Counted from the first letter of the stretch, positions 1,539 through 18,769 are shown. The stretch is 34,601 nt of DNA from an uncultured Oscillospiraceae bacterium (GCA_964613315.1 CAZTHD010000001.1:1-34601), one strand, 5' to 3'. A program made the numbers and translations. Notes: generated from the letters alone by a model not told the origin.

Positions 1539-1541
1539 TAG

Positions 1542-2582: not shown

Positions 2583-2584
2583 GT

Positions 2585-4469: not shown

Positions 4470-4503
4470 TCCGGTACCGCTCCTTCCTGAAGGTAAGCAT
4501 TTA

Positions 4504-5895
4504 CTAGATTCTTACTCCTGTTCCCTCAAAGCATCGCTTAATACAAAGAGGAGCATTATGATTTATAATTATTTGTCCGTCACTTGCTAAGTAGAACAAA
4601 ACTCTCTCGTCTGGGACAGAGGTACAAGCCCCACCGAATATACTCACACAACGCAGAATGGTCGCCTTGGGATATTCTGGGTAGATGTACTCTTGCTCTA
4701 TACTATCGTAGTTCTCGATTTCCCGAAGCCCTTGGTCTAGAGTTGTTAGCATCTTTCCTTCTACAAGAATTACATAATTTGTTTTCTCATCATAGAGAAC
4801 AACATCTGGAAGATAGAGATTAACTCCATTACGGTCCTTCTTTGGTAAAGTAATAAGCTGCCCGGATTTCGTTCTAAAGTAACCTCTCTCGCAACCTGCA
4901 TGATTTTCATATACGCAGTACATACCGTGATACATGGTTTGAATATGTAATAATATATCTGCCATTTTTTCAGATCTTTTCTCATAATGCCAATATAAAT
5001 CTGGTAAAGTAACGTTTTTTGGCATATTAATATCGGATAAACGCATACCTAATATACTACAGATGTAAAGGAACTTGTTTTTTCCATGTGTATGATCAAC
5101 ATACTCTTGCGTGACGCCGTGTAAGGTTATAACAATATCTTTATCCCAACCAAGTTTGCGAATACACGCAGAAATCATTGATAAAGCGCCAATATTTGGG
5201 TCATGGCCTATATTCCCTGCGTCTGCTGGTTTTGCTAGGCGACCAGATACTTCGATTCTGTCCTGGTATTTTTTTATAGTAATAGGAACATTGCCAGCTG
5301 GAGGCTGCCGCATTCCTGCTTTAAAAGCAATCAGATCGTCTAGCGAAGTAAAAGGTTTAAACCAACGACTTACATCTTTTCCAACAATTGTGACGCCAAG
5401 GGTAAGGAGTATATTTGTTCCAAATACGCTGGTGTCAGAAGGCTTTTTCTCTTCGCGCGCTTCAAGTTCTTCGTTGTATAACATATATAGTTTGACGTTT
5501 CGATAATAAGGAGTGATATAGACAAATTTTGACCCTCTTTGATAAACTCCCGTGTTTCGAGATTCGTCATCACTGGTCTTTGTTTCCTCGATAGCCATTA
5601 TAAGATTATCGGAAGGGTTCCCTTCTATCGGAGCTTCCGCTTGTTTAAAAAGTAAAAAATCTAGGAAACTTGAATTCCCGCTGACTGTTTTAATAAAAAT
5701 ATCAGCCGCATTCGCAACGCGTAATCCCTCCACTTGATACACAAACCTAAAAATACCATCTTTGATTATTGGCTTGATCTTTACTTCTTCTCGAAAGGTT
5801 ATTTTATCGTTAAAATCAGAGCAATACATGTCGACTATTTGACAAATAACCGAAGGTTTGGGCCTTTCTTCAGTTAGTAACCATAAGTTATCCAA
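4504..5895 (-). CDS. Putative restriction endonuclease (PD-(D/E)xK candidate) convergent with the three methyltransferases
   Basis: Long ORF (track 4504-5925). Candidate motif LPDVVLYDEKTNYVILVEGK near the C-terminus. I prefer TTG at 5895 because AGGAGG lies 6 nt upstream on the minus strand. No family recognised. Confidence 0.5.
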   Translation of the reverse strand: MDNLWLLTEERPKPSVICQIVDMYCSDFNDKITFREEVKIKPIIKDGIFRFVYQVEGLRVANAADIFIKTVSGNSSFLDFLLFKQAEAPIEGNPSDNLIMAIEETKTSDDESRNTGVYQRGSKFVYITPYYRNVKLYMLYNEELEAREEKKPSDTSVFGTNILLTLGVTIVGKDVSRWFKPFTSLDDLIAFKAGMRQPPAGNVPITIKKYQDRIEVSGRLAKPADAGNIGHDPNIGALSMISACIRKLGWDKDIVITLHGVTQEYVDHTHGKNKFLYICSILGMRLSDINMPKNVTLPDLYWHYEKRSEKMADILLHIQTMYHGMYCVYENHAGCERGYFRTKSGQLITLPKKDRNGVNLYLPDVVLYDEKTNYVILVEGKMLTTLDQGLREIENYDSIEQEYIYPEYPKATILRCVSIFGGACTSVPDERVLFYLASDGQIIINHNAPLCIKRCFEGTGVRI

Positions 5896-5937
5896 AATAC
5901 ACCTCCTATGTTTATGCTGGTACAATTCTACAAGGAG

Positions 5938-5969
5938 TGATATAATATATACACCGCATATATGCGGTG
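5938..5969 (+). promoter_or_regulatory. Extended -10 promoter plus perfect 18-bp palindrome in the divergent nuclease/HTH intergenic region
   Basis: TGaTATAAT at 5938-5946, followed by CACCGCATATATGCGGTG (5952-5969, self-complementary), then RBS AGAGGGGA and ATG at 5990. Confidence 0.5.
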
Positions 5970-5989
5970 ATTAACAAGAGGGGATCTGA

Positions 5990-6718
5990 ATGTCTTTATT
6001 TCACCGAATCAAAACATATAGAAAAGCATTGGTAATATCGCAAGAAGAATTAGCAAGAAAAGCAGGAATAAATGAAAAGTATTATGGTCGAATAGAGAGA
6101 GGAGAGAGCTCACCAACTATTGACTGTTATCAAAAAATATGTTCCGCACTTGAAATATCGCCAGCCGAGCCTTTTCTTGTTGCGTTGACCTTCGGAAACA
6201 GTGAATCGCAGACTGCATATAGAATTACAGGACAGTTTATTAAAAATCTAGAAAAGGATATTGACATACACATCAATAGAGATCTTTTCTTTGATGATTG
6301 CGAGAATACATTATGGTTTCACGGGTTTGTCGGATCGATGAGCTTTGATGAATTTGAGCTATTATTTTATGCAGAAGGAAATATCAGAGGGGAATTGTAT
6401 CTTGATAATCAATTGATTCTTCAAATAAACGGAGAGGATGTTTCCTCAGAATTACGAAAGTATATATCAAACGATATCCAATTACATTATCTTCTTGAAT
6501 ATATGAGCTATGATCCTGATGTGCTGCAAAATAAGAATGGTAACGCGTTATTTCTTAGTGAATCAAATTGGTTATCTGTGAGTATAATTGATAGAAGAAC
6601 AAATAGTACGCTTTTTCAGGATATCGTTTTAGAAGTAGATAATGTTGTAGATGCTTTCTCTAATTCTTCACTTTTTTTCGATTTAATATTTAATTCAAAC
6701 GGGCTAAGTAATGAATAG
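5990..6718 (+). CDS. XRE-family HTH protein with ~170-aa C-terminal domain of unknown function
   Basis: N-terminus IKTYRKALVISQEELARKAGINEKYYGRIERGESSPTIDCYQKICSALEISPAEPF is a typical XRE HTH. No recognisable motif in the remainder. Confidence 0.75.
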   Translation: MSLFHRIKTYRKALVISQEELARKAGINEKYYGRIERGESSPTIDCYQKICSALEISPAEPFLVALTFGNSESQTAYRITGQFIKNLEKDIDIHINRDLFFDDCENTLWFHGFVGSMSFDEFELLFYAEGNIRGELYLDNQLILQINGEDVSSELRKYISNDIQLHYLLEYMSYDPDVLQNKNGNALFLSESNWLSVSIIDRRTNSTLFQDIVLEVDNVVDAFSNSSLFFDLIFNSNGLSNE

Positions 6719-6779
6719 AAATGCATTTTGGGCTCGAAATAAATGGTAAAGTGAATTGTCATATATTTGGTGAACACAG

Positions 6780-7352
6780 ATGATTGGTTTTAAGACAGAA
6801 CACATTGGATTAAGAGTTATAGTTGGGAAAGTCTTTGCTGATTTAAAAATAGCAAAAAATACATGTATTTATGAGCTTAAAACGGACGCAGGTCTCATGG
6901 ATTATGCCTTTACAACTTTTGAAAACACTGGGAATATGCAGGAATTGAAGTGTAGTGATTTTGAGTTGTATTTGCACTTACTTGCATGGGCTATGTTCGA
7001 ACAAGGGGTACTTACGGCTTATCTAACTTTAAAATACGGCAGGCCTCTGCTCGATGTTTTAAAGGAGGATATTCAAAGAGAAATGGAAACCTATTATAGC
7101 AAGGAGTATATTCATAGAACCTTAGAGCTTCTAAATTCTTCAACTAACAAAGTCGCCGAAGCAAAACTAGTCGAGTTTATAAAGGAATATATAAAACGAG
7201 TAGAAGGTGATGATTTCATAGAACTATATAATCATGATCATCTAGAATGGTTCGCAACGATGGCTTTTTATGCAGGAAACAGCGTTTACATACAATTACA
7301 AGGAGATAATGAGAGATTCTTCCCTGTCAACTGGTGCTTTGCTTGTTTCTAG
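6780..7352 (+). CDS. Hypothetical protein
   Basis: 190-aa ORF co-directional with the HTH gene, 61 nt downstream. No motif recognised and the RBS is weak. Confidence 0.45.
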   Translation: MIGFKTEHIGLRVIVGKVFADLKIAKNTCIYELKTDAGLMDYAFTTFENTGNMQELKCSDFELYLHLLAWAMFEQGVLTAYLTLKYGRPLLDVLKEDIQREMETYYSKEYIHRTLELLNSSTNKVAEAKLVEFIKEYIKRVEGDDFIELYNHDHLEWFATMAFYAGNSVYIQLQGDNERFFPVNWCFACF

Positions 7353-7393
7353 TGGTTATTTCAGTAATCAATCAAATAGGAGTCTAGAACGAG

Positions 7394-8086
7394 ATGGAAG
7401 AGAAAAAAGGATACGTATATATATTGACAAACCCCAGCTTTAGGGAAGACTGGGTTAAAATAGGTAAGTCTTCACGTCCGGTTGATATTAGATCTAAGGA
7501 ATTATACAACACAGCGATCCCACTTCCTTATGAGATTTACGCAACAGTAAAGACGTCAAAGTATAACGAACTTGAAAAGAATATTCATAAAATGCTAACA
7601 GAATTAGCTGACAAGAGGATAAACCCGAGTCGTGAGTTTTTTAACATTAAACCGGATAAGGCTCTTGAGTATTTAACTGATTTGGCTAACCTTATAGATG
7701 ATGCAGAAATTGATGCGCCTGATGATTCAGTGAATTTCAAAAAGAGTCGAAAGAATAAAGGAAAATACATTGTCGAGACAGATGAATTGTTCTATTTGGA
7801 TAATGGTATTTGTAAAGGGCAAATGAAGGTCGTTGATTCAAATAAATTTGTATTATTGGAAGGATCAGTAATTGATCCAAAGATTTATTCAAATGAATCT
7901 CAGATAAAAAATCTTAGAAAAAAATATTCGGGGTATATTAAAAACGACGTTGTTATTAAAGATATTGAATTTAGTTCTCCATCTACAGCAGGCGAGATTA
8001 TTCGTGGTGGAGCTGTAAATGGGAAACGTTACTGGCGTACTAAAGATAACAAACCGTTAATTGATTTTATTAAATACATAGAATAA
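7394..8086 (+). CDS. T5orf172 (GIY-YIG-like) domain protein with C-terminal DUF4357-like domain
   Basis: GYVYILTNPSFREDWVKIGKSSRPVDIRSKELY..LEKNIHKML matches the T5orf172/MUG113 pattern. C-terminal FSSPSTAGEIIRGGAVNGKRYWRTKDNKPL matches the DUF4357 pattern. Confidence 0.7.
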   Translation: MEEKKGYVYILTNPSFREDWVKIGKSSRPVDIRSKELYNTAIPLPYEIYATVKTSKYNELEKNIHKMLTELADKRINPSREFFNIKPDKALEYLTDLANLIDDAEIDAPDDSVNFKKSRKNKGKYIVETDELFYLDNGICKGQMKVVDSNKFVLLEGSVIDPKIYSNESQIKNLRKKYSGYIKNDVVIKDIEFSSPSTAGEIIRGGAVNGKRYWRTKDNKPLIDFIKYIE

Positions 8087-8193
8087 AGGAAGCCAGTTTT
8101 ACAACTTTCTATTGTTATAGCCCACAACGAACTAGATTTAGATTTTCTATTTAGCTTCTGCTATCCTTATAATCGGAAAGGAGGATAGCACTC

Positions 8194-8394
8194 ATGGAAT
8201 ATAAGCTTTTAGAACGGCTTATGCCGGGAACAGAGAATCCGGAGTTTGTGCAGGCAAAGATCGATACCTTTCTTGCAGCAGATCCAGGGATCGATGAAAA
8301 TGCTTTCAATGAAATTCTCGGATACATTGAACTTTCAGGATTTCAGAAAGGTATGAAAATAGGATTTGAGCTGATAAAAGAGATTAATAGTTAA
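8194..8394 (+). CDS. Small hypothetical protein
   Basis: 66-aa ORF with RBS GGAAAGGAGG, followed by a strong terminator. Confidence 0.5.
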   Translation: MEYKLLERLMPGTENPEFVQAKIDTFLAADPGIDENAFNEILGYIELSGFQKGMKIGFELIKEINS

Positions 8395-8411
8395 TATGCG
8401 ATGAATCCTAT

Positions 8412-8444
8412 GAGGTGTCGGTCAAGACCGACACCTCTTTTGTT
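8412..8444 (+). terminator. Rho-independent terminator
   Basis: gaggtgtcggtc / gaccgacacctc perfect 12-bp inverted repeat, followed by ttttgtt. Confidence 0.8.
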
Positions 8445-8525
8445 GCAATCCTTTAGGCAGCAGGGGATAGACCCACCCAATTCACCCTGGTAAAAAATAC
8501 ATGTCGACATTTTTGGATTTTAGTA

Positions 8526-8553
8526 TTGAAAACATTTGTTCGAGGTGTATAAT
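8526..8553 (+). promoter_or_regulatory. Near-consensus sigma-A promoter driving a ~145-nt leader
   Basis: TTGAAA (8526-8531), 16-nt spacer, TATAAT (8548-8553). The first downstream start codon with an RBS is at 8704. Confidence 0.55.
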
Positions 8554-8703
8554 GATGGCGTGATTGGGGAAGATACGCAGGTGCCCGGTGATTCTTTGGG
8601 GATATAGTCCCTGCGGATCTGACTTCTGCGACGGGAAAAGGGATGCCGCCGGGAAGGACTTCTTGGTCATGATAAAAGGGAAAACAATTGGGAGACACGA
8701 AAA

Positions 8704-8892
8704 ATGAGAAGAGAAAATGTGAGGTGCCCGGTATGCGGCACGGTGAACAGATCGCTGGATCTGGATGAGACTATGGGCTCTATGGAATGCATAAAGTGCG
8801 GGAACGCCTTTCAGCTTGTAAGGTATTCCGGTCAGTGGCATATCCCGAAGAGCCTTTCTGAAGGAAGTATTACGCTCTTTCCCGCTGTCTGA
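8704..8892 (+). CDS. Small zinc-ribbon protein
   Basis: 62 aa with CPVCG...CIKCG. RBS GGGAGA. Confidence 0.6.
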   Translation: MRRENVRCPVCGTVNRSLDLDETMGSMECIKCGNAFQLVRYSGQWHIPKSLSEGSITLFPAV

Positions 8893-8907
8893 AAGGAGAG
8901 TGAGGCG

Positions 8908-9102
8908 ATGCAGGACTATAACGTATATTCCTGGTATTGCCCGAACTGCAGCCTGAAGCTTTCGGGAAGGAGGAACGCAGAGAATCTTATAAGAGTAAGA
9001 TGCGCAAGGTGCGGATCCGAGATGATTCGCAAACTGAAGAACCGCCGGTGCGATGTACTGTACATCTACGCTTCTGAAGGGGAGGAGCGTATAGGCGGAT
9101 AA
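8908..9102 (+). CDS. Small zinc-ribbon protein
   Basis: 64 aa with CPNCS...CARCGS. RBS AGGAGAG. Confidence 0.6.
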   Translation: MQDYNVYSWYCPNCSLKLSGRRNAENLIRVRCARCGSEMIRKLKNRRCDVLYIYASEGEERIGG

Positions 9103-9243
9103 TAAAAACTAAATCAGCGGCAGAAAGACGGGAAGGCCGGGATGAAACAGAGCCTATGCTAAGTCCTTTTCCAGATCGTCTGACCGTGCAGCTATAAAAA
9201 ATGCTGCGAACATGACCGGTTGGTTTGACCAGACATACGTGAG

Positions 9244-9316
9244 AGGCCGCCGGCAGCGCTTATGCGCCATTGCTTTTGCTTTGGCGCATGGGACTGCCGC
9301 GCGGCCTTTTTGTTTT
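9244..9316 (+). terminator. Strong compound hairpin terminator/attenuator upstream of the sigma-like gene
   Basis: Outer stem aggccgccggcag (9244-9256) / ctgccgCgcggcct (9294-9307, one bulge), inner stem atgcgcca / tggcgcat, then tttttgtttt. Confidence 0.75.
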
Positions 9317-9354
9317 ACCCAGCCGGAGAAAAACAAAAGGGGTTTAGGAGATAA

Positions 9355-9909
9355 ATGAAAGAAAAAAAGATAAAAAGCCTTGAAGGCTACGGGGAGTTCA
9401 GGGAAATGTGTTTCCCTTTTCTCCTTGAGGAGGAATATCCCGGATGGACGGGAGAGGAAAAGTGGGGGATCGTAACAGATCTTAGCGAGGATGCGCTCCT
9501 TGAGGAGTATCCGAAGATAATGGAGGCTCTTTCTCCCTATCTGATGCTTCCTTCCGGATACGGGGAGATCAGAAGGGAATACGAAAACAATGAAAGAAGA
9601 AGTAGAAGAGCAAAGGAGAGCGAAAGCCTCTTCGGATACGACGAAGATACGGAGGTCTGTCATCCGGCGCTTGTATCAGAAGATTTTACACAGGAGCTTG
9701 CGGACAGGGAGCTTCTTAAAGAAGCCTTTGCCTGCCTTACGGGGATTCAGAAAGAAAGAGTGTATAAGCATTATTTCCTTGGCATGAGCCTTAAGGAGAT
9801 CGCGGAAAGCGAAGGAGAAGGAGCGAGCAAAAACGCAGTATGGGAAAGCATTCGCACTGCTCTTAAAAAAATGAGAGACTTCATTGAAGGATTCGGAGGG
9901 GAAATATGA
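9355..9909 (+). CDS. Sigma-70 region-4-like HTH protein (Tn916 Orf7-type regulator)
   Basis: C-terminal LTGIQKERVYKHYFLGMSLKEIAESEGEGASKNAVWESIRTALKKMRDF resembles sigma region 4 / LuxR-type HTH. It sits upstream of xis-int, as in Tn916-family elements. Confidence 0.6.
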   Translation: MKEKKIKSLEGYGEFREMCFPFLLEEEYPGWTGEEKWGIVTDLSEDALLEEYPKIMEALSPYLMLPSGYGEIRREYENNERRSRRAKESESLFGYDEDTEVCHPALVSEDFTQELADRELLKEAFACLTGIQKERVYKHYFLGMSLKEIAESEGEGASKNAVWESIRTALKKMRDFIEGFGGEI

Positions 9910-10442
9910 GGAGAGAGAGAAATATAAGAAGAGGGGAGATCTGGCTCTGCGACTTAGGAGAGGAAAGGGGCAGCATCCAGGGAGGCATGAGGCCCGTGCT
10001 TGTAATAGAATCGGAAAGGATCTCAAGGAATGCTCCCACCGTCATAGTTGCCGCGATCACCTCGGTTATAAAAAAGGCTTATATGCCGTCCCATGTTATA
10101 CTGCCCGATTCCGCAGGGCTTGACAGAACCTCCATGGTCATGCTTGAGCAGGTCATGACTGTAAACAAGTATGATCTTGTAAGTTATATAGGCTTCCTTA
10201 CGGATCAGAAGACCTGGAGGATCATAAACAGCGGCCTTAAGAAAGTTTTCGGCATGTGGATATACAGAGAAGGAAGCCCTGCGGATATACGCTGCCTGTG
10301 CCCAAGTTGCGCACATGACTATATGGAGGCCGGCTACACAATAAAGCGCCTTGATCCCTTTGCACATTCAAAGGAGCGCTGCACAAAGTGCGAAGGTTTC
10401 GGCTACGACTATATCGTTTACGATCCGAGGCAGAAGGTATAG
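9906..10442 (+). CDS. PemK/MazF-family toxin-like protein with C-terminal Cys4 zinc-ribbon extension
   Basis: RRGEIWLCDLGEERGSIQGGMRPVLVIESERI..TVIVAAITS is the MazF pattern. The tail carries CLCPSC...CTKCEG. ATGA overlap with the sigma-like gene. Confidence 0.75.
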   Translation: MRRERNIRRGEIWLCDLGEERGSIQGGMRPVLVIESERISRNAPTVIVAAITSVIKKAYMPSHVILPDSAGLDRTSMVMLEQVMTVNKYDLVSYIGFLTDQKTWRIINSGLKKVFGMWIYREGSPADIRCLCPSCAHDYMEAGYTIKRLDPFAHSKERCTKCEGFGYDYIVYDPRQKV

Positions 10443-10451
10443 GAGGACGTC

Positions 10452-10661
10452 ATGGATATGGTAAATGAAATGTACGTTCCTCTCTGGGAAAGAAGCCTTC
10501 TTACTGTGGAGGAGGCAGCGAGCTATTTCGGGATAGGAAGAGACAAGATCAAGGAGATATCAAACGACGACAGGTGTCCCTTCGTACTGTGGGTAGGCAC
10601 AAAGAGGATGATCAAGAGAAAAAAGTTCGAGGAATACCTCGAAGAAATGTACTCGATATAA
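10452..10661 (+). CDS. xis: Tn916-type excisionase (Xis)
   Basis: VPLWERSLLTVEEAASYFGIGRDKIKEI...MIKRKKFEEYL resembles Tn916 Xis (IPIWER..LTIEEASKYFRIG...IKRKQFEK, from memory). Lies immediately upstream of int. Confidence 0.8.
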   Translation: MDMVNEMYVPLWERSLLTVEEAASYFGIGRDKIKEISNDDRCPFVLWVGTKRMIKRKKFEEYLEEMYSI

Positions 10662-10673
10662 GGTTTGTCAAGT

Positions 10674-10705
10674 GTGCGATTTATAGAATTTTGGGTAAAT
10701 CGCAC
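10674..10705. promoter_or_regulatory. Perfect 10-bp inverted repeat between xis and int
   Basis: gtgcgattta (10674-10683) / taaatcgcac (10696-10705) with 12-nt spacer. A second hairpin ttcctgcag/ctgcaggaa follows at ~10724-10746. Confidence 0.4.
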
Positions 10706-10783
10706 ATTTGAAAAGGATTCTCTTTTCCTGCAGAATACTGCAGGAAGAGAGATCCCAGATGCTTAGAAAGGGGAGGATTAAGA

Positions 10784-12016
10784 ATGGGACAGAAAAGAAT
10801 GGCCGGAAGGCAGGTCCTTAAAAAAGGCGAGGGCCAAAGATCAAACGGTACGTTTTACTACCGCTGGGTGGACAGAAAAGGCGAACGCCGGGTGATCTAC
10901 TCAAAGACCCTTACGGCTTTAAGGGAACGTGAGAAGGAAATGAATAAAGACCTTGCCGACGGGATCAAGTACGAGGCAAGGTATACCACGGTAAACGATA
11001 TGTATAAGGCATGGAAAGATATCAAACGGGGCCTTCGAGACAGCACCTTCATGAACTATACGTATATGTACGAGACCTTTGTTGAGCCGACCTTCGGAAG
11101 GTCGCGCATAAGCCAGGTGAAAAAGTCGGATGTGAAGCACTTCTACAATACCCTTGCGGACGAAAGGAATCTGAAAGCGGCAACTATTGACAGTATACAC
11201 ACCGTCATCCATCAGGTGTTCGAGATGGCAGTCGAGGATATGTATATCAGAGCCAATCCGGCAGACAACGCTCTCAAGGAACTCAAGAGATCCCATGTGT
11301 ATAAGTCTGAAAAAAGAAGGGGACTTACACTGCCGGAGCAGGAGCTGCTTCTAAGCTTTCTTAAGAAATCAAAATACGTGCACTGGTATCCTGTGATCGC
11401 GGTGATGGCCGGTACGGGAATGAGAGTGGGAGAAGTGACAGGCCTTCGCTGGCAGGACATAGATCTTGATAAGGGGATCATAGACGTAAACCACTCCCTC
11501 ATCTATTACAACCACAGGGAGGAAGGGTACAGGAACGGAAGCTATTTCAACGTCCATGAGCCTAAGACCGAAGCCGGCATAAGGCAGGTTCCTATGATCG
11601 GGTTTGTAAAGGAAGCCTTCCTTATGGAAAGGGAATACCAGAAGGAACTTGGTATAACGTGCAATTCCGTTATTGACGGTTACACGGACTTCATATTCCT
11701 TAACCGCAACGGCGAAGTGTACGGGTATTCGCAGATCAACAAGGCGATAAAGAGGATCATAAGGGACTGCAATGACGAGCAGTTCCTTAAAAGTGAGACC
11801 CCGGATGTTCTGCTTCCGAACTTCAGCTGCCATAATCTCCGTCACACCTTCACGACCAGGATGTGCGAAGCCGGAGTGAATATAAAGCTGATGCAGGACA
11901 TACTGGGGCATACGGATATTTCAACGACCCTGAATATCTACGCTGATGCCACAAAAGAACTGAGAGAAAAGGAGATGGAGAATCTTGAGCAGTATTTTGC
12001 GGGGATGGGAGCATGA
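10784..12016 (+). CDS. int: Tyrosine recombinase/integrase, Tn916 family
   Basis: 410 aa. TGMRVGEVTGLRWQDID, HNLRHTFTTRMCEAG, LGHTDISTTLNIYAD supply the R...HxxR...Y catalytic pattern. RBS GGGGAGGA. Confidence 0.9.
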   Translation: MGQKRMAGRQVLKKGEGQRSNGTFYYRWVDRKGERRVIYSKTLTALREREKEMNKDLADGIKYEARYTTVNDMYKAWKDIKRGLRDSTFMNYTYMYETFVEPTFGRSRISQVKKSDVKHFYNTLADERNLKAATIDSIHTVIHQVFEMAVEDMYIRANPADNALKELKRSHVYKSEKRRGLTLPEQELLLSFLKKSKYVHWYPVIAVMAGTGMRVGEVTGLRWQDIDLDKGIIDVNHSLIYYNHREEGYRNGSYFNVHEPKTEAGIRQVPMIGFVKEAFLMEREYQKELGITCNSVIDGYTDFIFLNRNGEVYGYSQINKAIKRIIRDCNDEQFLKSETPDVLLPNFSCHNLRHTFTTRMCEAGVNIKLMQDILGHTDISTTLNIYADATKELREKEMENLEQYFAGMGA

Positions 12017-13806
12017 GCTACGAAAGTATAAACAGTGAAGACGCAAGGACCTTCATACCGGCAAAACCTAAGATCAATCTGACCGAAAAGGACCGTTTCT
12101 TCCGGGTCTGCGCATACTGCCGCGTCTCCACGGACAACGATGAGCAGCTCACATCCTTCGAGCTTCAGCAGGCCCACTATATGCAGCTCATGCAGGATCA
12201 TCCCAACTGGGAGCTTAAGCATATCTTTGCAGACCAGGGTATTTCAGGAACCTCCCTTAAGAACCGCGACGAGTTCAATGAGATGATAGCGGCCTGCAGG
12301 AGGGGCGAATACGATCTGATCGTGACAAAGAGCGTATCCCGTTTCGCAAGAAACCTTGTGGACTGCATCTCGCTCATACGTATGCTGAAGGGCCTTGATC
12401 CGCCCGTCGGGGTGTACTTCGAGACGGACAATCTCTATACGCTTGGGGAGAATACGGAGTTCATGCTTTCCTTCCTTGCGACCTTCGCCCAGGAGGAATC
12501 GGTGAAGAAGAGCGAGGCCATGAACTGGTCCCTCCACCAGCGCTTCAAGGACGGAAAGCTTCTTACTCCCGCGCTTCTGGGCTACGACCGCCCCAGAGAC
12601 AGCGCCGGGCACTATATAAAATATGCGCCGCTGATCGTGAACGAGGAGGAGGCCAGGATAGTCCGCTTTATATATGATGCATACCTCTCCGGATGGTCCT
12701 CGGAGCAGATAGCGTCGTTTCTCAGAGACATAGAATGCAGGACAAAAAGGGGAAGCTGCGACTGGACCGCAACGTCCGTCGGATACATCCTGTCCAACGA
12801 GCGCTACTGCGGAAGCGTTCTGACCTGGAAGACATTTACGGCGGATCTTTATGAGCATAAGCATAAGAAGAACAGGCAGGACAGGGACCAGTACCTCTAC
12901 AGGGACAGGCATCCGGCTATAATCAGCGTTGAGACTTTTGAAGCGGTCCAGGTGCTTATTGAAAACAGAAAGCATCACATAAGAGGCCCCATGCCGTCCC
13001 TTCAGGTGATAGAAGAAGGGATCTTCAGGGGATACGTTCCTGTAAACCATCACTGGGTGAACGACGATCCTAATATTTATTACGACGTCTCAAATTCGGT
13101 GGCGGGAAGAGCAAGGGCAAGGACCATTGCAAAGGCTGCCTTGAGCGTCTTTGATCTTTCAGGATACCAGGTCGTGAGAAACCAGTTTACCCAGGTCAGG
13201 TATGAAGGACCTGCGATCACGGTAACAGACCGCAGGATTACCTTCAATACCTTCTGCATGAGGACTTTCGGTGACGTCGGATACATCCAGCTCCTTCTGC
13301 ATCCCGCCGAAAGAAGGATAGCGATACGTCCCTGCAGGGAGCGCGATACGCACAGCATAAGGTGGAGACCGGATCCTTCCGCTTCCGTATATCCGAAAAC
13401 CCTTTCCTGCCCCCATTTCGGGACCGCGCTGTTCAGCATAATGGGATGGGATCCTGATTACGTCTACAAGGTGCGCGGCGTATGGGCGAAAAGAGGAAAG
13501 GAACAGATAATGGTCTTCAGCCTCGGTGCAGCGGTCCCTTCAGTGCAGCTTTCAGGTGATGAGGAAACCAGGAGGAAGAGAAGGGTGGAAATGTGCCCGG
13601 AGGAGTGGGAGGACGATTTCGGGGAGGAGTTCTATGAGCACGCTCTTGACAACGGCTTCTATTACCTCTCGCCTGGATCCGGATGGCATGCCGATGCAGA
13701 AAGCATCCCGGCTCCCGGAATGGAGCAGTTCCCCGTGCCGGGCATGGATGACCTCAAGGAAACAATGATGATGCTTACAGGAGAAAGGGAGAATGAAGAT
13801 GAATGA
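12013..13806 (+). CDS. Large serine recombinase with non-canonical C-terminal domain
   Basis: CAYCRVSTDNDEQ and VTKSVSRFARN (resolvase catalytic domain), then a recombinase domain (YCGSVLTWK...). No CxxC zinc-ribbon follows. Start ATG overlaps the int stop (ATGA). Confidence 0.9.
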   Translation: MSYESINSEDARTFIPAKPKINLTEKDRFFRVCAYCRVSTDNDEQLTSFELQQAHYMQLMQDHPNWELKHIFADQGISGTSLKNRDEFNEMIAACRRGEYDLIVTKSVSRFARNLVDCISLIRMLKGLDPPVGVYFETDNLYTLGENTEFMLSFLATFAQEESVKKSEAMNWSLHQRFKDGKLLTPALLGYDRPRDSAGHYIKYAPLIVNEEEARIVRFIYDAYLSGWSSEQIASFLRDIECRTKRGSCDWTATSVGYILSNERYCGSVLTWKTFTADLYEHKHKKNRQDRDQYLYRDRHPAIISVETFEAVQVLIENRKHHIRGPMPSLQVIEEGIFRGYVPVNHHWVNDDPNIYYDVSNSVAGRARARTIAKAALSVFDLSGYQVVRNQFTQVRYEGPAITVTDRRITFNTFCMRTFGDVGYIQLLLHPAERRIAIRPCRERDTHSIRWRPDPSASVYPKTLSCPHFGTALFSIMGWDPDYVYKVRGVWAKRGKEQIMVFSLGAAVPSVQLSGDEETRRKRRVEMCPEEWEDDFGEEFYEHALDNGFYYLSPGSGWHADAESIPAPGMEQFPVPGMDDLKETMMMLTGERENEDE

Positions 13807-14404
13807 CAGCGAAGCGGAAAGGATAATCGAGGGAGCAAGGATCATAACTAATGCGGACGATGAACCGGAGATCATTGCGGACCTTGCAGGATATCAGGTC
13901 ACAAAGGCGGAGCTCTTTGCACACTCAAGGGAACCGGCCGTGACCATATGGGAATCGAGGATCAAGTTCAATATGGCGTGCCTTAGGAAGTTTCCGGGAG
14001 TCACACATATCCAGATACTGATACATCCGGAGCAGAAAAGACTGATTATAAGGCCATGCGAAGCCGATGCTCCGGATTCGCTCCGCTGGGCAAAAGGCGG
14101 CGGAGAAAAGGAGCTTTCAAACAGGGATCTTCGCTGCAAGATCTTTGCGGCAAAGGTCTTCGAGCTCATGGGCTGGGATCCCCAGTATCACTACAAAATG
14201 ATGGGAAAGCCCGCCGTCTACAACGGGGAGATACTCTTTCTTTTCAAGCTCACGGATTTCGAGCTGTTTGTAAGCAACGGAAGGAAGAGAAAATCATACC
14301 TTCCTGAGGAGTGGAGAGACTATTTCGGAATACCTGCAGATCAGCACGAGGAGTCGTACAAGGTCGATCTTGCGGATGGATATATAACGACTGATAAAGC
14401 ATAG
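13793..14404 (+). CDS. Stand-alone paralog 1 of the serine-recombinase C-terminal domain
   Basis: 203 aa, aligning with recombinase residues ~378-545 (e.g. PAVTIWESRIKFNMACLRKFPGVTHIQILIHPEQKRLIIRPC vs PAITVTDRRITFNTFCMRTFGDVGYIQLLLHPAERRIAIRPC). 14-nt overlap with the recombinase gene. Confidence 0.75.
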   Translation: MKMNDSEAERIIEGARIITNADDEPEIIADLAGYQVTKAELFAHSREPAVTIWESRIKFNMACLRKFPGVTHIQILIHPEQKRLIIRPCEADAPDSLRWAKGGGEKELSNRDLRCKIFAAKVFELMGWDPQYHYKMMGKPAVYNGEILFLFKLTDFELFVSNGRKRKSYLPEEWRDYFGIPADQHEESYKVDLADGYITTDKA

Positions 14405-14415
14405 GAGGTTAAACG

Positions 14416-14877
14416 ATGGATCAGATAAACAGCATCAAAGAAATAAGTATGGACGGATTTCAGGTGGTGAGCGGCAGCATGTTCCGGCACAGGACTCAGT
14501 TTACTTCGCCGACGGCAACTATCTGGCCGGACTACATCGGCTTCAACAAAAATGCGCTTCTTTCTCTTAACAACTGCGAGAGGGTGCGCATAGAGGTAAA
14601 TACGGCAAAGCGCTGCATTCTCGTGGTTCCGGTCACGGAAAGTGACAGGGACGGAATCAGATGGGCAAAAAACACCCAGATCCCGGCGCAGCGGAAGATG
14701 TGGTGCGAGGCGTTTGCAGCCCAGCTTTACGACATATGGGAGCTTGACAGTCAGATGGCTTACAAAGCTACCGGAAAACCTGTTTCAGCGGACGGAAAGA
14801 TAATGCTGCTCTTTGATTTCAGCAATCCGGACTGCTGGATGATACACAAGAAGGAGAAGAAGGAAGATGGCAAGTGA
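14416..14877 (+). CDS. Stand-alone paralog 2 of the same domain
   Basis: 153 aa. PTATIWPDYIGFNKNALLSL..RVRIEVNTAKRCILVVPV..DGIRWAK..WELDSQMAYKATGKP shows the same blocks in the same order. Confidence 0.7.
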   Translation: MDQINSIKEISMDGFQVVSGSMFRHRTQFTSPTATIWPDYIGFNKNALLSLNNCERVRIEVNTAKRCILVVPVTESDRDGIRWAKNTQIPAQRKMWCEAFAAQLYDIWELDSQMAYKATGKPVSADGKIMLLFDFSNPDCWMIHKKEKKEDGK

Positions 14878-15214
14878 TATCACGATCTCTTTCTATCTTA
14901 AGGATACAAGGATCTGCATCTATTCAGCCGTGCTTAAGGGAATAGGGAGCCCCTCAAGGATATGTTTCATGATAAGTGATAACGGTGACAACCTTCTCGT
15001 ATCACCTTATGAGAAGAAGGATCTTAAATCCCACAGCGTTCCTGCAAGGGTATACGCAGGAGAGGACTCCATGAGAGTGAATAGCTACGTTCTCTGCCGT
15101 ATCATAGCGGAGTTGCACGGATGGGATCTGAACCGTTCCTACAGGGTCCCGGGAGAGATCATCCCGGAAAGAGAAGTTGCAGTGTTTTTTCTGAAGGAAG
15201 CAAAGGTGATCTGA
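14867..15214 (+). CDS. Stand-alone paralog 3 (most divergent) of the same domain
   Basis: 115 aa. ICFMISDNGDNLLVSPY and LHGWDLNRSYRVPGE correspond to the IQILIHP..LIIRP and MGWDP.Y.YK..G blocks. 11-nt overlap with the previous gene. Confidence 0.55.
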   Translation: MASDITISFYLKDTRICIYSAVLKGIGSPSRICFMISDNGDNLLVSPYEKKDLKSHSVPARVYAGEDSMRVNSYVLCRIIAELHGWDLNRSYRVPGEIIPEREVAVFFLKEAKVI

Positions 15215-15217
15215 ATT

Positions 15218-15445
15218 ATGCAGGCCTATTATATTAAAATATTGAAAAATCACATCAGGTATTACCGTGAGATAGCGGGGCTGTCTCAGTCGGAACTGGC
15301 CCGCGCGATCGGCGTTTCTCAGCAGTCTGTAAACAAATATGAGCACGGTGTGATGAATCCGGGCCTTGCCACTGCGGTAAGGCTGTCGGATCTGTTCGAC
15401 GTATCCGTAAGGGATCTGTTTGAGTTTGAAGAGGGGTATTACTGA
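15218..15445 (+). CDS. XRE-family HTH transcriptional regulator
   Basis: 75 aa. IRYYREIAGLSQSELARAIGVSQQSVNKYEHGVMNPGLATAVRLSDLFDVSVRDLF. Confidence 0.8.
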   Translation: MQAYYIKILKNHIRYYREIAGLSQSELARAIGVSQQSVNKYEHGVMNPGLATAVRLSDLFDVSVRDLFEFEEGYY

Positions 15446-15487
15446 AAAGGCATATCAGCTGTATATAATCTGCAGACAACCGGGAGA

Positions 15488-15509
15488 GCAGTACAAAATT
15501 TTGTACTGC
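15488..15509. promoter_or_regulatory. Perfect 22-bp palindrome (operator or weak terminator)
   Basis: GCAGTACAAAATTTTGTACTGC, self-complementary, followed by ctttctg. Lies between the XRE gene and the 15592 ORF. Confidence 0.4.
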
Positions 15510-15591
15510 CTTTCTGATAGAATGCATACTGGAAGGAGGCCTTAAGGCTTCCGCAGCAGAGAATTAATATCAGGACCGGGAGGGAATCGGA

Positions 15592-15894
15592 ATGGCAACA
15601 GTATACTGCAGATCGACAGGACACAACGTCCACAGCTTTTATATCAGGACCGGAAGAGAGGAATTCTTCCTCTTCAGCCAGACATTCAGGAAAGGGGTCC
15701 ACGAGTACTACGCAGGCGGCGTAAACTTAAGCGGAGCCATGGACTGCTCCAGGGGAAGACACGACAGTCAGCTCCTCAGGACCATGAACAAGATCCCGAA
15801 ATACATAGCATATGTGGAGAAGGAATACGATACCGTAATACTGGACAGGACCAGAAAGAACAGGGAAAAGCACAGACTTGCCCTGGCAAACTGA
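15592..15894 (+). CDS. Hypothetical protein
   Basis: 100-aa ORF with RBS GGGAGGGA. No motif recognised. Confidence 0.5.
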   Translation: MATVYCRSTGHNVHSFYIRTGREEFFLFSQTFRKGVHEYYAGGVNLSGAMDCSRGRHDSQLLRTMNKIPKYIAYVEKEYDTVILDRTRKNREKHRLALAN

Positions 15895-15912
15895 TAAGGA
15901 TAAGAAAGGGGA

Positions 15913-16338
15913 TTGATATATATGAATAAGGTTATGCTTATAGGAAGACTTACTAAGGATCCGGAGGTCAGGTATACCAATGCGTCACAGACGGCAGTGG
16001 CAAGATTCTCTCTTGCCATAGACAGAGGGAAGAAAGCAAACGGAGAAGACGCCGGAACGGACTTTCCCACCGTAGTTGCATTCGGAAAGACTGCGGAACT
16101 CATTGAGAAATATGTATCAAAGGGGCAGCAGATTGCAGTCGAGGGAAGAATTCAGACAGGTTCTTACGAACGGGATGGCGTAAAACACTACACCACCGAT
16201 GTAGTTGCCGAAAGGGTTGAGTTCCTCGGCAAAAAGGAAAGCACGGACGATCTTCCGAAAGGGCTTGGGAAGACGGAAGATGCAAGCGATGCCCTCAGTG
16301 TGTTCTCGAGTATTACGGATGACGATATACCGTTCTGA
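15913..16338 (+). CDS. ssb: Single-stranded DNA-binding protein
   Basis: MNKVMLIGRLTKDPEVRYT...VARFSLA OB-fold N-terminus and the acidic C-terminal tail DDDIPF characteristic of bacterial SSB. Confidence 0.9.
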   Translation: MIYMNKVMLIGRLTKDPEVRYTNASQTAVARFSLAIDRGKKANGEDAGTDFPTVVAFGKTAELIEKYVSKGQQIAVEGRIQTGSYERDGVKHYTTDVVAERVEFLGKKESTDDLPKGLGKTEDASDALSVFSSITDDDIPF

Positions 16339-16354
16339 AGGGAGGTTTAGGAAG

Positions 16355-16525
16355 ATGAGTTTACTCTTTTTCACAAAGGAAAGATACAAAGACCCTGAGT
16401 ATTACAAGGCTCTGGGCGAATGCGATTATGACTGCCTTGCATGCAGGCATCTGGATGTCGACTGTGAGGGGGATGAACTGGAGGATCCGGAACTCTTCCA
16501 GGAACTGTTTGATGAAGACTTGTAA
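16355..16525 (+). CDS. Small acidic Cys-containing protein
   Basis: 56 aa from the ATG at 16355 (RBS GGGAGG). CDYDCLACRHLDVDCEGDELEDPELFQELFDEDL. The longer track ORF (16205) overlaps ssb. Confidence 0.5.
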   Translation: MSLLFFTKERYKDPEYYKALGECDYDCLACRHLDVDCEGDELEDPELFQELFDEDL

Positions 16526-16548
16526 TGGGAAGAATGAGAGGGGTAGAT

Positions 16549-16761
16549 ATGAAAAAAGCAACAAAAACGGAACAGAAGCAGATGAGGGACTTTGCACTCA
16601 TATTCGGTAAGGATTCATACCTCAGCATGGCTGATGACGGAGCCAGACTTATTTCCACCCTTGCCGGTGCGGAGGGTCACACTATTATTGCCAGGTACGA
16701 TTTGAAGAATGATATGGTAGAGAGTCTCATCCGAGAAAGAGATGATATCGGCGCAAGATAG
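16549..16761 (+). CDS. Hypothetical protein
   Basis: In-frame ATG at 16549 is preceded by GAGAGGGG (the track ORF starts at 16525). No motif recognised. Confidence 0.45.
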   Translation: MKKATKTEQKQMRDFALIFGKDSYLSMADDGARLISTLAGAEGHTIIARYDLKNDMVESLIRERDDIGAR

Positions 16762-16931
16762 GAATCGTGAATGGTGGTATACTATTATTGAAATTGATTT
16801 TACAAAGGAATCATAGGAGAATGATGATCGCCCGCTCATATGGCGTTAAACCTGGAGTATGTGAAAGGAAGCGATGTTAGAAATCCGAGTAGCAATAAAT
16901 ATCAGCACTATGGTATCGCTTTCCGGTGCTG

Positions 16932-16940
16932 TGGTATAAT
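16932..16940 (+). promoter_or_regulatory. Extended -10 element (TGgTATAAT)
   Basis: TGGTATAAT at 16932-16940, about 30 nt upstream of the ATG at 16972. Confidence 0.4.
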
Positions 16941-16971
16941 AAAGCGAAGTACCGACAGAGAGGAATGTAAG

Positions 16972-17604
16972 ATGCCAATATATGAACTGGACTATGGAAA
17001 AGAAGTAGACTTTTCTCGCAAGATGGCTAAGGTCGTAACTAAAGCCCAGGAAGAGCTCCCTGAAGATGTTTCTTCCAAGTTATTCTGTGGAACCAACATT
17101 TTAGTGGACTATTCGTGCTTTGAAAAAGAACAGATCATCCTTATGGTCGTTTACGATAATTGGGATGAGCAGTATTCATTAAAAAAGAAAGGTTTGGATT
17201 TAGCAAAGAAAACTTTAACTCCAATTATCAAGGATGTTTTCGGTGAGAAATATCGTCTCATGGCTATGTTTGCGAACAATAAGTACAGGATGTGGATTCC
17301 CAAGTATTACCTAATTAATAAATCAGGTCATAAGGAACTGGCTGCAGAGCTTCATGACCATGTATTCAGGTACTACAAGGGTAAATGGCATAAAACAAAG
17401 GATCAGGACTATATCAGTAATTACTTATTCGGTATTGATCCAACCCAACCGGAAAGTTTAGAGAATTTCGGTAATCAGGAAATACAGGATATGATTAGAG
17501 AATTATCCAAAAAGGAAGCAGAAGTGTTTTTAAATGGCAAAATCGATGAAGACTGGTTCTACGACGAGTTTTTGAAATCATATGAAAAGGAGGAGTATTT
17601 GTAA
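16972..17604 (+). CDS. Hypothetical protein (orphan, 210 aa)
   Basis: ATG at 16972 has RBS AGAGAGGA and lies downstream of the extended -10; the track ORF start 16840 lies upstream of it. No motif recognised. Confidence 0.6.
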   Translation: MPIYELDYGKEVDFSRKMAKVVTKAQEELPEDVSSKLFCGTNILVDYSCFEKEQIILMVVYDNWDEQYSLKKKGLDLAKKTLTPIIKDVFGEKYRLMAMFANNKYRMWIPKYYLINKSGHKELAAELHDHVFRYYKGKWHKTKDQDYISNYLFGIDPTQPESLENFGNQEIQDMIRELSKKEAEVFLNGKIDEDWFYDEFLKSYEKEEYL

Positions 17605-17902: not shown

Positions 17903-18769
17903 TTAATTCAGGTTATTACCGTGCTCGTTTCTGGAATCAAAGACTTTTTTCCAGTAGTTTTCCCTATCTAATATATATTTGGAATCGTTACTGAAAAAAA
18001 CCTCTAATAAAGAAAACTGGAAATACTGCGCATAATTATCGTTTTCCTGCAAAAGATTAATCAGCCCTTTATTATTCCCGGTTCCACCGGTATAAACATA
18101 GGTTGACCATCTTTGCCAAATACCTTCTTCCCCATATGCGCTTCCGATATAGAGTTTTCCTGTTGATGTGTCTGTTATGACATAAATACCATAAACATTA
18201 GAAAGGGCTTGTCTCCAATTATCTGTATTTTGTGTAACGAGAAGTTCAAGTTCTTTAAATGAAAGTCGGACTTTATCATAGCCGGGAAATACTTTATTAG
18301 TCTTAATGTAAGGCTTATTTAGTATCTCTATCACTTCAATAGTTTCTATATTCTGAATATCGATTTTTGCCTGTTTGTCTCCCTGGTGTTTCTGATATTT
18401 AATTATGAGCCTTTCCTTGTAGCATGAGAAACGGTCAAGTTCCTGGAGGTCATATAGCTCTGCTCCATCACCTCTATTTATGATCCCGTTTACTTTGAAC
18501 GCTCCAAGAAAAAGCCAATTGTCCCACTTTTTATCTTGATCTAGTCGTATGAATTGCAGGCAATAATCGGTATTGATGACTCTAAAGCTCTTTTTTCCTG
18601 GGCTTTTTTTCCATGATATGTGTTCTATCAAACGTGCGTGGTTCTCACTGTTAAAAGAATATACACCGTCTTTTGACTCTGTCGCATTGTTTAAGCACAA
18701 AGTCCAGTCATTGTATTCTTCCTGGTTCAGGTTTAATATATCCGACAGATGTATACATTTGGTACTCAT
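17903..18769 (-). CDS. GIY-YIG nuclease (I-TevI-like catalytic domain at the C-terminus) with ~190-aa unknown N-terminal domain
   Basis: VYGIYVITDTSTGKLYIGSAYGEEGIWQRWSTY ... LDRENYWKKVFDSRNEHGNNLN gives GIY-x10-YIG plus the conserved Arg, Glu and Asn. Confidence 0.8.
   Translation of the reverse strand: MSTKCIHLSDILNLNQEEYNDWTLCLNNATESKDGVYSFNSENHARLIEHISWKKSPGKKSFRVINTDYCLQFIRLDQDKKWDNWLFLGAFKVNGIINRGDGAELYDLQELDRFSCYKERLIIKYQKHQGDKQAKIDIQNIETIEVIEILNKPYIKTNKVFPGYDKVRLSFKELELLVTQNTDNWRQALSNVYGIYVITDTSTGKLYIGSAYGEEGIWQRWSTYVYTGGTGNNKGLINLLQENDNYAQYFQFSLLEVFFSNDSKYILDRENYWKKVFDSRNEHGNNLN

Follow-up and report, generated by a model that had tools for sequence, protein, structure and literature searches.

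A large serine recombinase with a new C-terminal domain is accompanied by conserved free paralogues of that domain in mobile elements and phages of gut and rumen Clostridia

Here we describe a cassette of four plus-strand genes, at nucleotides (nt) 12013 to 15214 of a 34,601-nt stretch of DNA from an uncultured Oscillospiraceae bacterium (GCA_964613315.1 CAZTHD010000001.1:1-34601; hereafter the window), that encodes a serine recombinase, which we call SR-X, followed by three small open reading frames (ORFs), A, B and C. SR-X belongs to the lineage of the large serine recombinases (LSRs) and has exchanged the zinc ribbon and coiled-coil of these proteins for a new domain, termed domain X, two or three free paralogues of which are conserved directly downstream of the recombinase gene. 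The four genes form a conserved recombination module of mobile elements and temperate phages from gut and rumen Clostridia.

SR-X, delimited by the ORF call, Pfam matches and its catalytic motifs, is a protein of 597 amino acids (aa) encoded at 12013..13806 (+). Its Resolvase catalytic domain spans residues 33 to 182 (12109..12558, +; Pfam PF00239, E 2.2e-25; PDB 3g13, E 5.9e-33) and its Recombinase domain residues 211 to 319 (12643..12969, +; Pfam PF07508, E 5.3e-24). These are followed by a conserved linker (residues 320 to 375; 12970..13137, +), in which invariant alignment columns read GxFRGYxPxNHHWxNDDP...YYDxSN, and by the first copy of domain X (residues ~376 to 510; 13138..13542, +), the basic core of which was recognized by BLASTP, hhalign, an AlphaFold2 (AF2) model and charge. 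The protein ends in an acidic tail (residues 511 to 597; 13543..13803, +) with a net charge of -17 and the sequence PEEWEDDFG at nt 13597 to 13623. Downstream lie ORF A (13793..14404, +; 203 aa), a stand-alone X (core ~28 to 165) with acidic N- and C-terminal tails and the sequence PEEWRDYFG; ORF B (14416..14877, +; 153 aa), a stand-alone X without the tail motif; and ORF C (14867..15214, +; 115 aa), the most divergent stand-alone X. The SR-X and A genes overlap by 14 nt and the B and C genes by 11 nt, A and B are separated by a gap of 11 nt, and a Shine-Dalgarno-like sequence precedes each of A, B and C. A six-frame scan with the family profiles described below found exactly four copies of domain X in the window. 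The ORF calls agree with an earlier inspection of the DNA (the sequence-only reading) in the coordinates, the shared direction and the 14-nt and 11-nt gene overlaps; the sequence blocks that it had matched between the recombinase and the ORFs were also correct in general, although the SR-X block given there as DSIRW is HSIRW.

The catalytic motifs of SR-X are intact, with S39 in YCRVSTD and SRFARN at residue 109, and it is beyond the Recombinase domain that the protein departs from other LSRs. Pfam assigned only PF00239 and PF07508 to SR-X; the LSR zinc ribbon, Zn_ribbon_recom (PF13408), gave no match to SR-X at E <= 1 in Pfam, and DUF4368 (PF14287) had no Pfam match in it either. The NCBIfam CcrA/B/C and XisF models match SR-X over their first ~280 profile positions only, the PHROG 'integrase' match is limited to residues 22 to 324, and the SPbeta integrase 9dxh aligns with residues 77 to 319 only. 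Similarly, Foldseek aligned the SPbeta and PhiC31 integrase structures with SR-X over only ~300 to 360 columns, those of SPbeta over ~310 to 360. No CxxC motif is present in residues 320 to 597 of SR-X, 44 relatives have 0 to 1 in this region, and the AF2 model contains no helix of more than 12 residues after residue 320, its linker (predicted local distance difference test [pLDDT] values below 50 at residues 328 to 340 and 349 to 379) and tail being of low confidence. When the profiles of all four X families were compared with canonical LSR C termini from the same loci, hhalign probabilities did not exceed 0.3%. The HTH_7 domain of small serine recombinases found no match in SR-X, which is 597 aa long and has a Recombinase domain. 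Among 6249 SR-X homologues at E <= 1e-10, the best 120 all carry Resolvase and Recombinase domains only. A degenerate zinc-ribbon domain was ruled out, as the Cys pairs are absent and profile similarity is lacking. Together, the missing CxxC motifs, the missing long helix, the lack of profile similarity and the partial structural alignments indicate that the zinc ribbon and coiled-coil are genuinely absent from SR-X, rather than diverged past detection by Pfam. Pfam, CxxC, AF2 and hhalign data thus agree with the proposal of the sequence-only reading that a non-canonical C-terminal domain sits in the zinc-ribbon/coiled-coil place.

The domain found there is homologous to all three downstream ORFs. 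In BLASTP comparisons, SR-X residues 379 to 549 aligned with residues 28 to 197 of A at 35% identity over 178 aa (E 2e-32), and matches were also obtained between A and B (E 1.6e-21) and between SR-X and B (E 2e-10). ORF C matched A with an E value of 1.4e-4 only, and the pairwise BLASTP comparisons of C with SR-X and with B were not significant. Family profiles were built from 44 to 48 unique homologues per gene, drawn from related loci, and in profile-profile comparisons with hhalign all six pairs were significant. Specifically, the SR-X C-terminal region matched A with a probability of 99.9%, B with 99.7% and C with 98.1% (E 7e-14), while the A-B, B-C and A-C pairs gave 99.9%, 97.8% and 96.4%, respectively. 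The identity of A, B and C to the SR-X copy of the domain is 22 to 35%. The sequence-only reading had claimed that the C-terminal domain recurs as three co-directional, stand-alone genes, and had named profile alignment as the check that could overturn this claim. Significant similarity was found among all four segments; the homology of SR-X residues ~376 to 549 is seen by BLASTP for A and B and by profile-profile comparison for C, and the three free copies are supported by BLASTP, by the profiles and by the census of relatives given below.

Domain X is an alpha/beta domain of ~130 aa. In the AF2 model of ORF A, residues ~45 to 160 form a confident core (pLDDT 77 to 91 except for one loop), and both tails are disordered. 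The first half of the core is formed by strands at residues 49 to 52 and 56 to 59, a helix at 61 to 65 and strands at 72 to 78 and 83 to 88, and the second half by a strand at 111 to 114, a helix at 116 to 126 and strands at 132 to 143, 146 to 152 and 157 to 160. The SR-X model has the same order of strands and helices at residues 401 to 510, with pLDDT values of 73 to 86. The X cores are basic (net +7 and an isoelectric point [pI] of 9.7 in SR-X, net +5 in A), as are the B and C families, which have median pI values of ~9.0 and ~9.2, respectively; the SR-X tail and both tails of A are acidic. After the X core, SR-X and A have in common a P-E-E-W-x-D-x-F-G motif that B and C lack. In SR-X, P529, W532, F536 and G537 of this motif are invariant, and distant phage versions retain it as PPDWADTFG and PEEWQNQFG (SR-X and the A-like protein).

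No family in Pfam, NCBIfam, PHROGs or PADLOC matched A, B or C, and a known defence system was ruled out, as PADLOC gave nothing for SR-X, A, B or C. A PDB profile search with domain X was empty at E <= 10, a phmmer search against the PDB returned only SdhE/YgfY chains at E 0.6 to 0.7, with no credible match, and Foldseek found no PDB match to the ORF A model at E <= 0.001. Below that threshold, sliding-clamp domains recurred with both models (Foldseek E 2e-3 to 0.1, probability at most 0.28, root mean square deviation ~15 Å), and the order of strands and helices in X is compatible with the two beta-alpha-beta-beta-beta motifs of DnaN/PCNA clamp domains; as the likeness stays below threshold, we treat it as a lead only and do not claim it. 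In a viral structure library, the best match to the A model was Gp105 of Lactococcus phage KSY1 (Foldseek E 2.7e-5, target-normalised template modelling [TM] score 0.68), followed by a protein of Bacillus phage Mgbh1 (E 6.9e-4, TM score 0.61). These small phage proteins are near ORF C in size, but share only 11 to 14% sequence identity, are unannotated and have no known link to a recombinase. Homologues of the downstream genes bear the public name 'hypothetical protein' or, for some A homologues, 'integrase', which is a wrong annotation for these genes. The sequence-only reading had not recognized the architecture as a described one and, indeed, we found no description of domain X or of the module in the literature or in curated families.

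The module is widespread and its genes are maintained together. ORF A has 835 homologues at E <= 0.001 (no Pfam family), and C is conserved in 45 unique homologues. With one genome taken per species, 51 loci were collected, nearly all of them assigned to Clostridia (Oscillospiraceae, Lachnospiraceae, Ruminococcus and Eubacterium); two came from metagenome-assembled genome bins labelled Actinomyces and Bacteroides. When the window was compared with 59 related loci, only SR-X, A, B and C were in common and the flanks differed, with identities to the window genes of 54 to 77% for SR-X, 64 to 79% for A, 31 to 55% for B and 31 to 59% for C. In a census of non-redundant SR-X loci with at least 1.5 kb of downstream sequence, a free paralogue lay directly downstream of SR-X in 56/56, and the full A-B-C order was present in 38 of the 56 by a crude ORF filter. 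ORF A is the most conserved gene of the cassette, with a dN/dS of 0.07, compared to 0.14 for the SR-X C terminus, 0.23 for B and 0.24 for C; all four genes are under purifying selection. The gene order and these dN/dS values (0.07 to 0.24) thus mark A, B and C as conserved coding genes of the relatives as well, in line with the sequence-only reading.

To delimit the distribution of domain X, its profile was searched against 1.84 billion representative sequences, which yielded 1990 clusters (at 50% identity), 999 of them at E <= 1e-10. The best 150 of the 1990 clusters comprise 97 A-like proteins, 48 SR-X C termini and 5 B-like proteins, and since all of these belong to the module, domain X appears, from these sequence matches, to be specific to this system. 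The seeming multi-domain X proteins result from read-through that joins the genes in their usual order. One cluster (cluster 8), which mixes 233-aa and 625-aa proteins, was considered as a fusion and ruled out as a clustering artefact.

A version of the module with two paralogues is carried by the 'Ca. Heliusvirales' gut phages, in complete deposited genomes (PV0364xx) of 49 to 59 kb. The phage gene order is HTH (helix-turn-helix) repressor, SR-X, A-like, C-like, an unannotated gene and a ParB-like DUF6551 gene. The phage SR-X proteins have 622 to 625 aa and are 37 to 40% identical to the window SR-X over their full length; the A-like proteins have 233 to 261 aa, the C-like proteins 130 to 133 aa and the products of the next, unannotated gene 317 to 338 aa. 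The stretch with the two genes after the cassette lies at 2955 to 4866 in one of these genomes (L090) and at 5807 to 7686 in another (L091), and GenBank lists every gene of the whole set except the repressor as 'hypothetical protein'. These phages also have a canonical LSR pair, which is convergent to the SR-X module and adjoins the endolysin gene. The A-like protein is found on at least 1000 contigs. Since A-like and C-like proteins are kept at 37 to 40% SR-X identity, A and C are old, distinct lineages; B is absent from the phage clade and, judged by its sequence distribution, looks like a later addition. In the passages on recombination genes of the Heliusvirales paper, only 'a DNA invertase' is mentioned (PMC11283538).

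Upstream of the cassette, relatives recurrently have an Xre-type HTH gene and, in 21 loci, a gene for an ATPase of the AAA_25 (DnaB/RepA-like) type. Many loci have the common layout LSR1 (~430 to 490 aa), LSR2 (~525 to 545 aa), HTH, AAA_25, SR-X, A, B, C, and thus encode a triplet of serine recombinases (examples are loci L008, L011, L043, L045, L049, L072 to L075, L078 to L082, L084 and L089). Among 30 well-flanked, non-redundant loci, another LSR was nearby in 15 and a tyrosine recombinase in 2, while 13 had neither within ~8 to 10 kb. The cassette lies at element edges: ordinary host genes begin within ~1.8 kb after it in the P0136 lineage, and on several IMG/VR contigs it is ~1 to 3.5 kb from the contig end.

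Inverted termini of one element type emerged from a comparison of insertions. A block of ~9.9 kb is common to loci L005 and L006 (nt 1475 to 11344 in L005; in L006 the termini are at 1475 and 13632), and its flanks differ on both sides. In L005, the block starts with TGCTATATAATACCCTCGGAGGTG and the reverse complement of its end is TGCTATATTACTCCCAAAAGGTG; 17 of 23 positions match, and the termini of this element type are imperfect inverted repeats. The same right end is joined to other flanks in L008 (right end 10490) and, slightly diverged, in L080 (~10887), a 36-kb viral contig with the full serine-recombinase triplet. A terminator-like hairpin lies 0 to 8 nt from the junction in four contexts or more, and none of the L005, L006, L008 and L080 junctions showed a target duplication. 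In L005 and L006, LSR1 is missing and LSR2, intact in L008 and L080, is broken by an IS21-family copy (IstA, IstB; L005 1513 to 3933), which leaves SR-X, together with A, B and C, as the one serine recombinase still intact between the termini. The IS21 copy is 93.5% identical between L005 and L006, and the whole shared block (1475 to 10833) 97.9%. These data suggest that SR-X is able to mobilise the element. Exact-pattern scans of viral contigs gave no match to the left terminus of the L005 type and none to the right terminus outside L080 itself, and a general search for inverted termini around the module in other lineages returned only 11-13-mers at chance level. In L080, a tRNA 3'-end-like sequence (GGTTCGAATCC...CCA; 10940 to 11014) separates the right end of the element from the flank that L080 has in common with L005.

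Other transposons with serine recombinases in turn use the cassette region as a target. A Tn4451-like mobilisable transposon (MobC, relaxase, TnpW and a TnpX-like recombinase with DUF4368) is inserted between A and B in L063 (8943 to 17800), and one with the same gene set lies directly after C in L065 (13152 to 16497); the DUF4368 recombinases in L060 to L066 are separate genes. Several further features were seen in the L060 to L069 island, which holds the P0136 variant. Its AAA_25 ATPase (L060 9014 to 9988) matches DnaB/primase-helicase PHROGs, and the C-terminal ~65 residues of this protein match the PHROG 'DNA transposition protein' (E 1.9e-14). Upstream, the island encodes BrxA, BrxB, a BrxC/PglY_N protein fused to TerL_nuclease, and Fic, and it also contains phage portal and ClpP-protease genes as well as a hybrid ORF with holin, Recombinase and Zn_ribbon matches that is likely a remnant of an LSR gene. 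Between the island and host two-component genes lies a ~171-bp unit (L060 14714 to 14884; also in L061, L062 and L067), the copy number of which varies from 1 to 3 among these otherwise near-identical contigs.

In the window, the cassette is a recombined copy embedded in a mosaic. It directly follows a Tn916-type Xis gene (10452-10661, +; Pfam Tn916-Xis 3.5e-21) and a tyrosine integrase gene (10784-12016, +; Pfam Phage_integrase 7.7e-30, Integrase_DNA 4.2e-13), the stop codon of which overlaps the SR-X start (ATGA). The first ~11 codons of SR-X are unrelated to those of its relatives, homology starting from ...TFIPAKPK at codon ~12 (nt ~12046), and the sequence upstream of SR-X is the 3' end of the AAA_25 gene in relatives versus the 3' end of the tyrosine integrase gene in the window. 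The dissimilar first codons place a recombination junction at about nt 12046, at the SR-X 5' end (12013..12046, +; DNA alignment and nucleotide-homology profile). Two unrelated recombination modules, Xis/Int and the cassette, thus abut, with no element end visible between them. The cassette genes are intact in the window and identical on sister contigs. An Xre-type HTH gene (15218-15445, +; Pfam HTH_3 4.9e-17) begins 4 nt after ORF C, and a terminator-like hairpin (15488-15509, +; terminator scan) is the probable end of the transcription unit.

The cassette is part of a block at ~8.9 to 17 kb with a GC content of 0.46 to 0.53, versus 0.34 to 0.40 in the adjacent flanks. The block (8900 to 17000) contains a sigma-region-4-like gene, PemK, Xis, Int, the cassette, the HTH gene and an SSB gene, and is flanked by a T5orf172/MUG113/DUF4357 gene (7394-8086) and a GIY-YIG-domain gene (17903-18769). 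A search for the empty site of the block by way of its flanking genes found no relatives among viral contigs, and an exact-protein look-up gave the same context only. No RNA genes or tRNA target were found in the window, and a megablast search of the region against plasmids gave no match. Candidate recombination sites were sought at 8 to 18 kb of the window; the repeats within the cassette (D1 and D6) merely reflect paralogous coding sequence, and the other DNA repeat pairs are likely chance matches. To the left of Int lie Xis, the PemK toxin gene, the sigma-region-4-like gene and a restriction-modification cluster; the sortase and CHAP genes that precede these on a longer sister contig point to a conjugative element. 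The PemK/MazF-like toxin (9906-10442; 178 aa) has its Pfam domain at residues 8 to 115, a C-terminal extension beyond it and no obvious antitoxin gene beside it; the upstream gene at 9355-9909 overlaps it and shows a weak likeness to sigma-70 region 4. At 1542 to 4469, three DNA methyltransferase genes stand side by side (two MethyltransfD12, one N6_N4_Mtase); they are probably restriction-modification or anti-restriction cargo, and are adjoined by a minus-strand gene (4504-5925) for a 473-aa protein with no family match on record.

What domain X and its free paralogues do can be approached from these data. We put about even weight on a reading, drawn from sequence and predicted structure, in which X binds DNA at the outer site and the three free proteins act in trans as subunits that govern site choice, synapsis or directionality. 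Within each recombination half-site, X would contact the outer part, as the zinc ribbon does in canonical LSRs; the free paralogues would assemble with the recombinase on flanking DNA and/or via X-X contacts; and the four proteins together would set site choice, synapsis or directionality. The basic X cores fit nucleic-acid binding, and the overlapping or nearly abutting genes are what translational coupling would lead one to expect. We propose more tentatively that SR-X, A and C, with B where it occurs, work obligately as one multi-subunit serine recombinase with catalysis in a single polypeptide, and, with the same reserve, that site recognition, synapsis control and directionality may be spread over diverged copies of a new DNA-binding fold. 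The weights attached to these and to the following explanations are separate estimates and not a partition of probability.

Several observations count against assigning X and its paralogues this role. The AF2 models are of moderate quality (mean pLDDT 58 to 64), and X is without a solved structural neighbour, so its function is unreadable from the fold. Owing to their tails, the whole of A and the whole SR-X C-terminal region are acidic overall. The canonical LSRs near 15/30 well-flanked loci and the tyrosine Int/Xis in the window mean that SR-X may not be the main integrase. In L005 and L006, the left terminus may be part of the neighbouring IS21 copy, and LSR1/LSR2 may have mobilised the derivative in trans.

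The cassette may instead be an auxiliary site-specific system, for multimer resolution, an inversion switch or regulatory excision, beside a separate integrase. This explanation concerns the purpose of the cassette and is compatible with any view of the paralogues. It draws on the other LSRs within ~8 kb at 15 of the 30 well-flanked loci and the tyrosine recombinase at 2, on the Tn916-type Xis/Int directly upstream in the window, on the phage LSR pair, which holds the classical position beside the endolysin gene, and on replication- or partition-like neighbours (AAA_25/DnaB-like, ParB-like DUF6551 and ParA/ParB). However, 13 of the 30 loci are without another recombinase within 8 to 10 kb, the derivative in which only SR-X is intact is found at two sites with the same termini, and no inverted or directly repeated candidate sites were found in the cassette region of the window. 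On balance we regard an auxiliary role as rather unlikely.

Alternatively, the free X proteins might be negative regulators or decoys that occupy the DNA sites of the recombinase or cap its X. DNA-binding-domain-only regulators such as IS1 InsA, IS911 OrfA and the Tn5 inhibitor are parallels for such decoys, A, B and C are paralogous to the putative DNA-binding end of SR-X and have no catalytic domain, and A, with the SR-X tail motif, could vie with SR-X for a shared partner. Decoys should follow the specificity of SR-X, however, whereas A, B and C are only 22 to 35% identical to the SR-X copy. Moreover, A and C are kept as separate lineages down to the phage clade, the constraint on A is stronger than that on the X region of SR-X itself, and three different decoys seem more than needed. 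We therefore consider this explanation unlikely.

We find it quite improbable that X is a protein-protein module and A, B and C a scaffold that couples the recombinase to the AAA_25 ATPase or to LSR1/LSR2. The restriction of the tail motif to SR-X and A, the overlaps or few-base gaps between most adjacent genes, which suggest stoichiometric co-production, and the AAA_25 gene upstream in 21 loci fit a scaffold, but the basic cores favour nucleic-acid binding, and the window and the phage clade retain the paralogues without AAA_25. In addition, from the mechanism of LSRs (PMC3783163), an LSR without a zinc ribbon would still need an outer-site DNA-binding module.

The assignment favoured in the sequence-only reading, a swapped-hairpin DNA binder of the AbrB/SpoVT/MazE type, which would make AbrB-like regulators of A, B and C, fared poorly and is in our estimate very improbable. 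The I-x-F-N...I-x-I-x-P pattern on which it was based does resemble the AbrB N-domain (in a validated AbrB sequence), and within the confident core only the first half (A residues 49 to 88), with its beta-beta-alpha-beta-beta order, is compatible with AbrB. The second half (beta-alpha-beta-beta-beta) has no AbrB counterpart. Domain X did not match PF04014 at E <= 1 in Pfam, its PDB profile search was empty, no AbrB, MazE or SpoVT chain was among the 50 listed Foldseek PDB matches, and hhalign against the AbrB/Abh/SpoVT N-domains gave a probability of 0.3%, in a weak test with a narrow three-sequence profile. The recurring sub-threshold structural matches are to sliding-clamp domains instead. 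Finally, that A, B and C are decaying tandem-duplication remnants or chance ORFs, to which the shortness and weak pairwise similarity of C might point, is effectively refuted by order, length and sequence kept in dozens of divergent loci and in phages, by the dN/dS values of 0.07 to 0.24 and by the ribosome-binding site of each ORF.

SR-X is still a serine recombinase; the domain and the module are new, and a multi-subunit mode of working is plausible and unproven. Like the LSRs of PhiC31, Bxb1, LI and SPbeta (SprA/YokA), SR-X has a Resolvase domain with a nucleophilic serine followed by a Recombinase domain (PF07508) and is encoded at the edge of integrated phages or elements. Unlike these proteins, it is without the zinc ribbon, Cys4 site and coiled-coil, has an unrelated ~130-aa domain instead, and has two or three free paralogues of that domain downstream. 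In canonical LSRs, the coiled-coil acts in cis and an unrelated directionality factor in trans. To our knowledge, directionality factors have no common sequence family, and we know of none that is a paralogue of an integrase domain; the gene position and co-conservation of A, B and C are compatible with directionality factors. Extra non-catalytic DNA-binding modules that regulate recombination or shape the synaptic complex also occur, as an analogy only, in IS1 InsA and IS911 OrfA and at res sites II and III of Tn3/gamma-delta; A, B and C differ from these in that each is a gene of its own that diverged long ago, and not a product of frameshifting or truncation or a further copy of one protein.

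Two further groups of serine recombinases are instructive for comparison. Triplets of serine integrases have been reported in integrative and conjugative elements (ICEs) of Firmicutes (streptococci), and 10 of the serine integrases in that study are noted there to be without a Pfam zinc-ribbon match (Ambroset et al. 2016, PMC4701971). As in those triplets, SR-X is often the third co-directional serine recombinase at the element edge in its relatives; unlike them, the window has SR-X alone, with no LSR1 or LSR2, and free paralogues are unmentioned in the PMC4701971 passages on the ICE triplets. SR-X also resembles the TnpX/TndX-type LSRs (Tn4451, Tn5397; Durrant et al. 2022, PMC10083194) in being clostridial and having a non-standard C-terminal region and, as in such multi-targeting LSRs, the several insertion contexts of the L005-L008/L080 lineage point to low target specificity. 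Unlike the TnpX/TndX-type LSRs, it is without both DUF4368 (PF14287) and the zinc ribbon.

Serine integrases are major genome-engineering tools, and how they recognise sites and keep the reaction one-way is understood only for those with a zinc ribbon and coiled-coil. The SR-X family is very large and occurs in prevalent human-gut phages, and its C-terminal half and obligatory neighbours are without family, structure or annotation. Even conservatively, the present data establish domain X as a new family and provide a four-gene signature by which mobile elements can be recognised. If the paralogues are indeed subunits, the module would show that a serine recombinase can be built and regulated in a new way, and would explain the integration or movement of widespread gut prophages and islands. 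All serine integrases characterised to date combine the zinc ribbon and coiled-coil with a directionality factor; a multi-subunit recombinase of this kind would depart from that scheme, and subunit exchange could change its choice of target.

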